Assembly: GCF_001677475.2 (NCBI RefSeq)
Contig: NZ_CP015229.1
DNA from: Escherichia coli
Lineage (GTDB): Bacteria; Pseudomonadota; Gammaproteobacteria; Enterobacterales; Enterobacteriaceae
Length of the DNA: 64,000 nucleotides
Reading direction: 5' to 3' (one strand)
Below, in pieces: positions 58,053 through 58,596 of the stretch. The first letter of the stretch is position 1; the number at the start of each line of letters is the position of its first letter. A model generated the notes under the pieces. That model worked only from the letters and a program-made list of their open reading frames with translations. It was not told the origin of the DNA and made no database searches. Both the position numbers and the translations under genes were made by a program.

Positions 58053-58163
58053 ATTTTTCCGTGTAACCAGGCAACCGACTATCTGAAAGATAGTCACCCC
58101 CTACCGGGATCACGCTAGTAACGCACAACAGAGTGACCCATAGCCACCCTGTTCAACCGTTCC

Positions 58164-58210
58164 GGCTGGCTGGCTGGCTGGCTGGCTGGCTGGCTGGCTG
58201 GCTGGCTGGG
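58164..58210. repeat. Tetranucleotide microsatellite (GGCT)11 / (CTGG)11
   Basis: GGCTGGCTGGCTGGCTGGCTGGCTGGCTGGCTGGCTGGCTGGCTGGG in the non-coding right arm of the island. Confidence 0.9.
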
Positions 58211-58596
58211 CAGATTTTGCGCGGGTCTTATAGTCCCTCACAACAGAGTAAATAAAATTGACTTGGTTACAGAGTAACCAAACCGGAGATTTCCGGTTTG
58301 CTCAAAAAATGACAATGAGTTACGCCCCTAACCTAAGTAATCCTTACATTCACTGCATCATCACCATGATGGTGACGCAGCCCACCAACAACCATAACGA
58401 CTTCCGTTACGGTTGATGCTTTTACCCCATTGGGGGGGGACATCCACCAGCTTGATAACGGATAACAGGGAGTCATAACGGTTAAAATTGTATACTTTTG
58501 CAGCAAACATTTTTAGCTACACGTTAAGCTATACGATTATGGATTAAAATTTTTTGACTTCAATTAAATCAAATAGTTACACACACGTTTTGAATA

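Follow-up and report, generated by a model that had tools for sequence, protein, structure and literature searches.

A length-variable GGCT repeat in the gene-free right end of a predicted phage satellite at proL of Escherichia coli

The stretch of Escherichia coli chromosome analysed here (64,000 nt of contig NZ_CP015229.1, referred to as the window) contains, at 58129-58596, an interval in which a GGCT microsatellite, a run of eight G residues (G8) and several palindromes are crowded together beyond the last gene of an integrated island. An earlier description made from the letters of the window (the sequence-only reading) had proposed that the repeat may vary in number between isolates and could alter a promoter, a small RNA or recombination close to attR. 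Repeat number was found to differ between related islands. The interval is probably the gene-free right end of a lambda-cos, EcCICFT073-type phage-inducible chromosomal island (PICI), and a composite of an att arm, a mosaic middle part and a neutral GGCT tract rather than one device. The features are collected in Table 1.

The gene order in the window is yejM, proL, island, yejO and narP. The core of attR repeats the 3' end of proL, and the two 17-bp direct repeats (CTCTCGTGCCGACCAAA; repeat family D8) are spaced 10,995 bp. An empty site was modelled in silico by joining 47401-47618 to 58614-58800. The joined flanks were contiguous in 4825 of the 5426 complete E. coli genomes, and the best match was 99.8% identical over 405 of 405 nt, in a region annotated as yejM, tRNA-Pro and yejO. 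Because the 17-bp repeats were found and the joined flanks recreated the empty site, the island was placed at 47619-58613, and the interval is its right end. That the interval is non-coding and forms the right arm of an integrated island next to attR was borne out by the open reading frame (ORF) list, the att repeats and the empty site. The strong terminator hairpin to the right of the core is part of the empty-site sequence.

By its gene content, the island was assigned to the EcCICFT073-type PICIs, a group of phage satellites. Gram-negative PICIs of this type are described as carrying capsid and decoration homologues and cos sites, and often PerC (PMC6092414; PMC6739421; PMC11773190). The island resembles the described cos PICIs (Fillol-Salom et al., 2018, PMC6092414; Fillol-Salom et al., 2019, PMC6739421) in being a discrete, site-specific element of ~11 kb (within the ~10-15 kb expected) with att direct repeats and an empty site in other strains. 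Further common traits are int at the left end, an AlpA-like protein, iterons downstream of a primase gene (the primase of the island is P4-alpha-like), and genes for a lambda E-like capsid protein and a gpD-like decoration protein. A lambda-type cosQ/cosN likewise lies beside a TerS/Rpp-like gene, and PerC is encoded as an accessory function near the right end. A gene for a 93-aa protein is also present, and no tail or lysis genes were found in the island ORF list. PHROG matches were obtained for the integrase, the excisionase/AlpA-like protein and the primase. The right arm, the microsatellite and the Chi density, by contrast, are undescribed in PMC6092414 and PMC6739421.

The helper-type cos site matches lambda cosN exactly (GGGCGGCGACCT, 56172-56183), has a cosQ-like sequence on its left and lies just upstream of the Nu1-like small terminase gene (terS, 56305-56859). 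To the right of cosN, the sequence is unlike lambda cosB, as published for EcCICFT073. Comparison of the TerS-like protein to PDB, as a test of Rpp identity, gave no sequence match. The primase gene (51410-53215) is directly followed, at 53214-53430, by AACTGTTCACC / GGTGAACAGT repeats in direct and inverted orientation, which have the place and form expected of a PICI iteron origin. The start of perC was taken from the RefSeq annotation of relatives (the longest ORF begins at 57681); 'PerC family transcriptional regulator' was the annotation in more than 40 related loci.

Repeat number was determined in related islands by direct reading of the sequences. Eleven copies of GGCT were counted in the window and in A36, 9 in A19, 13 in the viral contig L002, 8 in the metagenome contig L006, and 2 each in RM9088, STEC379, C5, L003, L004, L005 and L007. 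For about 20 other genomes with full-length matches, the span of the record was 35-37 nt below that of the query, corresponding to 2 copies; this arithmetic was validated on RM9088 and STEC379. Expanded alleles were present at five loci, and ~30 other related tract-bearing loci have 2 copies (~90% of alleles). The flanks of the tract (GTTCAACCGTTCC ... GGGCAGATTTTGCG) are 96-98% identical among the copy-number variants. The variation between isolates that the sequence-only reading had anticipated was thus observed, and invariance across related islands was not seen. Given 11, 9, 11, 13 and 8 copies versus 2 in related loci, the tract is hypermutable. At least two flank haplotypes carry expanded alleles (GGGATCAC...CCCATAG and GGGGTCAC...CCGATAG), and each of these haplotypes also exists with 2 copies, so that either expansion took place more than once or the haplotypes recombined.

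In the window, 11 full units at 58164-58207 are followed by GG (regular expression search); Tandem Repeats Finder reported 11.5 copies of period 4 with 100% matches. The count given by the sequence-only reading was correct, and its end coordinate, 58210, lay one base too far. No other tetranucleotide repeat of at least 4 copies occurs within the window, where all other tandem arrays have at most 3 copies. A scan of viral contigs with the right-flank pattern for additional copy-number data yielded no new loci. GGCT tracts of at least 8 copies were found in at least 120 places, mostly in unrelated phyla, and no Escherichia was among the matches listed.

The two strands of the tract differ in self-folding. 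The GGCT strand self-pairs through G-C, C-G and G-T/U and folds with -12.3 kcal/mol as DNA and -37.9 kcal/mol as RNA (z -5.1); the values for the AGCC strand are -1.8 and -12.5 kcal/mol, respectively. Fold-back of a strand is the usual correlate of slippage and expansion. We infer that the GGCT strand is the nascent lagging strand at this locus, which fits the negative chromosomal GC skew of the plus strand. The tract would have grown from a 2-copy proto-repeat by replication slippage, aided by fold-back of the GGCT strand through G-C and G-T pairs, and would then drift in length.

The coding capacity of the interval was assessed with the ORF list and by comparison to relatives. As the sequence-only reading had noted, the interval encloses no ORF of at least 60 aa; its longest comprise 57 aa on the minus strand and 52 aa on the plus strand. 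On the minus strand, a mechanical ORF of 61 aa at 58564-58749 overlaps the last 33 bp of the interval and crosses attR and the terminator. The 52-aa ORF is disrupted by a 1-nt indel in STEC379-type relatives, and the arm ORF frames are interrupted in relatives by indels or stops. Five arm ORFs and three ORFs of the longer A19 arm had no PHROG or NCBIfam match at E ≤0.09. The search of the arm against Rfam 15 gave nothing at the gathering threshold and, even at E values up to 10, no match in 58053-58538; a few weak matches begin at 58539-58583 inside the interval, and all centre on the chromosomal terminator at 58621-58651. A distant-mode similarity search of deposited phages gave no match to the whole arm, and strings of the arm sequence were found in no paper in the literature searched.

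The three effects proposed for the repeat found no support. With respect to a promoter, the tract lies outside any predicted -35/-10 spacer, in a region in which sigma-70-like sites are at chance level (2 found versus 2.3 expected from shuffles). With respect to a small RNA, no Rfam family matches the arm. With respect to attR-proximal recombination, the tract is ~390 bp away from the core and outside the integrase/IHF arm at 58441-58613. Most likely, the tract has no selected function and varies neutrally by slippage within mosaic non-coding DNA. This is the most economical reading because the tract is in no conserved ORF and no spacer, is distant from the core, is missing from some carriers of the downstream module (L017, L022 and TUM1881 have the module without any repeat), and is kept at 2 copies in ~90% of the loci.

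The part of the interval next to the core has the organization of a tyrosine-recombinase att site, with a core shared with the tRNA target, arm repeats on both sides, and sites for integration host factor (IHF). The arm motif TTAGYTAYACG has 9 matches in the window versus 2.5 expected, and no shuffle reached 9. Six of the nine are located in the two att arms, four at 47739-47792 next to int and two at 58513-58535. An IHF consensus lies between repeats and core in the left att arm as well, at 47660-47672. The arrangement corresponds to that of lambda/P4-type attP arms, with a 17-bp core identical to the 3' end of proL, repeated 11-bp motifs in both arms and IHF sites in between; it differs in its layout of four left and two to three right sites, which is specific to this integrase group and known from sequence matches. 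The right ~170 bp (58441-58613) would serve as a recombination arm which, together with the left sites near int, would bind integrase and IHF and build the excision/integration complex. Only about one third of the interval belongs to the att arm.

Between the tract and this arm lies the conserved non-coding module. Alignments indicated that its neighbours differ on the left and on the right between carriers. In strain C5, the module is joined directly to the 93-aa gene, without perC, and in O121 and L017 to a different, repeat-free upstream sequence. A segment consisting of perC plus the arm was found in islands at proL, yifB, smrA, thiM and tRNA sites. The occurrence of the same segment at many insertion sites and with varied neighbours implies that it moves between satellites by recombination. 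The conserved block was absent from the representative genomes of 100,044 species.

Perfect inverted repeats are clustered in the arm, with 4 in 568 bp versus 0.48 expected at window-wide density (Poisson P=0.0015) and 0.26 expected in shuffles of the arm. The repeats GGTTAC…GTAACC and CCGGA…TCCGG, which had been pointed out before, are present as the inner parts of two abutting stems, one of 8 bp (TTGGTTAC-AGA-GTAACCAA, 58263-58281) and one of 9 bp (CAAACCGGA-GATT-TCCGGTTTG, 58279-58300). Together, these hairpins fold with -16.7 kcal/mol (z is -3.65 for the minus strand and -2.93 for the plus strand). They include a minus-strand terminator-like site at 58284-58260 with 11 pairs, a 3-nt loop and a U-run tail, which has the sequence form of an intrinsic terminator. 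In L007, one fully compensatory change was found (GGTTGC/GCAACC). By their sequence, the tandem hairpins probably stop leftward (antisense) transcription entering from the chromosome or the att side. The 15-bp palindrome at 58361-58375, reported earlier as perfect, is present and is perfect in its 7-bp arms only. Palindromes with 7-bp arms are expected ~4 times by chance in 64 kb; no further copy of TCACCATGATGGTGA with up to 3 mismatches occurs elsewhere in the window, and EC12 has a doubly changed version, TCATCATGATGATGA, in its place. The fourth stem of the cluster, the hairpin just past the perC stop, lies to the left of the interval as first described; it is kept in relatives, with an inverted loop in L022.

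The right end of the module, 58390-58416, agrees with a stretch inside phage anti-repressor (Ant) genes at 25 fixed positions and at 2 positions of two-fold degeneracy (Y/R). The minus-strand frame of the arm reads STVTEVVMV... and is Ant-like (BLASTP, 14 of 28 residues identical, E=6e-5); it is broken upstream in relatives. The same 27 nt, present also in L016 (5278-6186) and L023 (2013-2231), encode STVTEIVMVA where phage Ant genes are intact. In EC12, a KilA-N fragment of 72 aa is annotated whose C-terminal tail uses these nucleotides in another frame. The use of different frames points to a shared recombination junction rather than to shared coding. Most likely, the Ant-like block is a gene relic or a recombination junction and would not be coding here.

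The G8 tract was found by regular expression search at the position described for it (58432-58439). No other run of G or C in the window reaches 8; three further runs of 8 consist of A. GB089 and FORC_069 have G5 at this position. To the left of G8, the window has the GB089/FORC_069 arm type, and from 58441 rightward it is 100% identical to the C5/STEC arm type; 58441-58500 is 100% identical in many proL islands. The joined G8 junction of the window was absent in one piece from all 5426 complete E. coli genomes. Since two arm types meet at G8 and the joined form was found in none of these genomes, G8 marks a strain-private junction. G8 and the palindromes do not form a single designed element; the palindromes belong to a hairpin-module mosaic that other islands share. 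The middle of the arm (58213-58440) is mosaic non-coding DNA that recombines between satellites and contains hairpin modules, an antirepressor fragment, Chi sites (one perfect and one decayed) and a junction; the strain-private junction would have created G8.

Table 1. Features of the island's right end and of its boundaries in the window. Strand 'none' denotes features without strand assignment.
Feature	Position	Strand	Basis or remark
tRNA-Pro(GGG) gene (proL)	47540-47616		tRNA gene hosting the island
Chi sites of the island	48987+, 49349-, 50046+, 50546-, 50733-, 51337-, 52894+, 53774+, 53800-, 57299+, 58444-	as indicated	
perC-family regulator gene	57750-58052	+	last island gene; ORF list, PHROG transcriptional-activator families
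8-bp stem, 3-nt loop, GACTATCT-GAA-AGATAGTC	58077-58095	none	just past perC stop (58052), no U-run after
(GGCT)11.5 microsatellite	58164-58209	none	polymorphic between related islands: 2, 8, 9, 11, 11, 13 copies
Conserved non-coding module, ~190-200 bp	58213-58416	none	recurs in ~50 E. coli genomes, 95-99% identical
Two abutting hairpins	58263-58281 and 58279-58300	- (58260-58300)	tail AATTTTATTT, terminator scan
7+1+7 palindrome TCACCATGATGGTGA	58361-58375	none	perfect in arms only
One-mismatch Chi CCACCAAC	58380-58387	-	perfect (CCACCAGC) in all relatives with the A19-type module
Ant-like block	58389-58416	-	27-nt stretch 58390-58416 and 10-bp hairpin 58390-58414
CCCC-ATT-GGGG hairpin, 3' arm extending as G8	58425-58439	none	junction of two arm types
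Putative attP-derived arm	58441-58596	none	arm-type repeats, IHF consensus, adjoins core
Perfect Chi octamer CCACCAGC (GCTGGTGG on minus)	58444-58451	-	3 nt right of the private junction
Integrase arm-type repeat TTAGCTACACG	58513-58523		motif TTAGYTAYACG
Integrase arm-type repeat TAAGCTATACG	58525-58535		motif TTAGYTAYACG
IHF consensus AATCAAATAGTTA	58567-58579		between repeats and core
Degenerate third arm-type copy	near 58572-58582		
attR core CTCTCGTGCCGACCAAA	58597-58613	none	17-bp direct repeat of proL 3' end 47602-47618
Chromosomal bidirectional terminator hairpin	58621-58651		proL-yejO gap, outside the island; first strong plus-strand terminator after perC

Several findings weigh against a composite with a neutral tract. 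The ~190-bp module is 95-99% identical across islands at different sites, which could mean selection and not recent spread. The module folds better than its shuffles on both strands (-75.6 kcal/mol, z -5.2 on the minus strand; -58.1 kcal/mol, z -3.5 on the plus strand), and one compensatory change together with several changes that are tolerated as G-U only on the minus strand hints at an RNA. A weak promoter-like site, TGGGCA-16-TATAGT (58207-58234), abuts the repeat. Finally, bacterial genomes usually purge long microsatellites that are of no use, and for this reason a tract of 8-13 copies that persists in several lineages is mildly suspicious.

The fold of the module leads to an alternative in which 58213-58416 is a leftward (minus-strand) small-RNA or 3'-end cassette that ends near 58255-58260 and acts as a regulator, or as an insulator of perC from antisense read-through. 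It agrees with the stronger fold of the minus strand, with the terminator-like site at 58284-58260, and with pairing counts over four helices in 10 distinct sequences, in which 320 of 325 cells were paired on the minus strand versus 290 of 325 on the plus strand, including the fully compensatory change. However, this asymmetry results from ~5 substitution events versus 2-3 in the opposite direction and is not significant. There is no conserved promoter, and the sequence right of the module differs between arm types; the sole minus-strand promoter-like site (58563-58536) is unconserved and at chance level. Moreover, Rfam gave no match, and the module was found only at identities of at least 95%, so that deep conservation is lacking. 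A cassette of this kind was considered improbable.

In a second alternative, the tract is a contingency (phase-variation) element whose length changes stochastically alter expression, and this was rated unlikely, somewhat below the RNA cassette. Two routes were considered. In the first, a (GGCU)n stem of ~23 bp in a long 3' untranslated region of perC would be a target of RNase III or would protect the 3' end; the plus-strand RNA of the tract forms the fold given above, 2 copies cannot form the stem, and no plus-strand intrinsic terminator was predicted between perC and 58621-58651. In the second, upstream sequence would be shifted relative to TGGGCA-16-TATAGT, the promoter-like site at the 3' end of the tract, which would read across attP towards int in the excised circle. 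The hypervariable copy number, which differs in nearly every expanded allele, also speaks for such an element, and AGCC/GGCT tetranucleotide tracts drive mod-gene phase variation in Neisseria and Haemophilus. Against both routes, the tract lies in no conserved ORF and no promoter spacer, and the overlapping ORFs of 40 aa and 43 aa have no family matches. Promoter-like sites are no more frequent than in shuffles, ~90% of the related loci keep 2 copies, which are too few to switch, and the three module carriers named above do without the repeat. Rated slightly lower again was a genuine contingency switch on an E. coli satellite, in which a change from 2 to 8-13 copies, by forming the stem or by re-spacing the promoter-like site, would make expression of the PerC-type virulence regulator or of the recombination functions of the satellite vary stochastically within a clone.

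The tract was compared to the tetranucleotide contingency loci of Haemophilus and Neisseria. Those tracts (AGCC/AGTC in mod genes, CAAT in lic1) lie inside ORFs or promoter spacers and cause ON/OFF switching. The GGCT tract resembles them in its AGCC unit on the complementary strand, its 8-13 copies, its hypermutability and the length differences between close relatives. It differs in being intergenic, with no conserved frame and no spacer, and in having mostly 2 copies. Since the defining placement feature fails, the tract was not classed with these simple sequence repeat (SSR) contingency loci.

A packaging site (second cos) or a satellite replication origin in the arm is very improbable: EcCICFT073 has two cos sites (PMC6739421) and A19-type relatives carry TGCGGGTTAT iterons and an AT-rich core in longer arms, but the only cosN match with up to 2 mismatches in the right part of the island is the one upstream of terS and none is in the arm, and the iterons of this island follow the primase gene, the A19-type iteron segment being absent from the window.

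The longer arms of relatives were inspected as well. The A19-type arm (L001, 12700-12890) holds, in ~650 bp absent from the window, three direct TGCGGGTTAT repeats with an AT-rich core, three inverted AACCCGC repeats (two of which are ATAACCCGC), a G8 tract of its own and a (TA)7 run; by its layout this segment looks like an origin. Other related arms (L022, 2330-2500; L024, 1715-1770; L014, ~5820-6060) contain repeated CTAACCCGYTGATATTTTCGG units with a short variable hairpin, e.g. CCTCAATTTGAGG or CCCCCATTGGGGG, and the conserved part of these units equals the IHF consensus on the opposite strand (TATCAGCGGGTTA).

Two further observations concern the surroundings of the arm. Three related AAATTT-centred palindromes, one of them the perfect 22-bp palindrome CAGAATGTAAATTTACATTCTG at 57311-57332, are located at 57231-57332 between the 93-aa gene and a minus-strand ORF of 142 aa (57338-57766). 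They look like operators, and similar units recur in the arms of relatives (L022, 2300-2330). The autotransporter gene yejO (58713-61304, minus strand) is an intact ORF of 863 aa in the window and was annotated as a pseudogene, with an internal stop, a frameshift or an IS (insertion sequence) insertion, in all six related genomes inspected in which yejO was annotated.

Chi sites, defined as exact GCTGGTGG, were counted in the island and its flanks. The island contains 11 in 10,995 bp, with 2.49 expected (P=6e-5), versus 12 in the 53,005 bp of the flanks, a ~4-fold enrichment (1 per kb versus ~1 per 4.4 kb). Chi is the commonest octamer of the island apart from repeat-derived ones. Related islands have 0.85-1.8 Chi per kb, and their arms (counted in L001, L008-L010 and L021-L024) carry 3-5 per 0.7-1.4 kb, arranged in some cases as inverted, hairpin-forming pairs. 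Orientation is balanced in the island (5:6) and likewise in five related islands. Several arm-type junctions lie within ~10 nt of a Chi site. The counts suggest that Chi may protect or recombine satellite DNA, which would account for the mosaic arms. A Chi density far above that of the host is also known from lambdoid phages that lack recombination modules, such as phage LLS, in which 20 of the 23 Chi sites share one orientation relative to cos and are clustered at the right end (PMC12315714, Genome Res 2025). In contrast to the oriented sites of LLS, those of the island are balanced, and satellites go unmentioned in PMC12315714.

The GGCT tract is best described as a new, polymorphic SSR locus carried by an element of a known kind, next to an att arm that would be conventional. 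It resembles the variable-number tandem-repeat (VNTR) loci of E. coli used in multiple-locus VNTR analysis in being an intergenic tandem repeat with strain-variable copy number and a possible typing marker. It differs in its unit of only 4 bp and its position on a mobile satellite in ~1% of genomes. As the locus sits on such a satellite, it types the element and not the chromosome, and it could be used as a marker for tracking the perC-bearing arm module between strains and insertion sites.

The composite reading explains an odd-looking stretch as ordinary satellite parts plus a real, fast-evolving microsatellite. If the tract did modulate perC or int, E. coli would have a rare example of phase variation by a tetranucleotide repeat, located on a mobile element; repeat-driven phase variation is not a trait for which E. 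coli is known, and the LEE (locus of enterocyte effacement) virulence island can be regulated by PerC homologues. The enrichment of Chi suggests that the linear DNA of satellites lacking a RecBCD inhibitor is protected or recombined via Chi, and in cos satellites it is possibly a more productive lead than the microsatellite.

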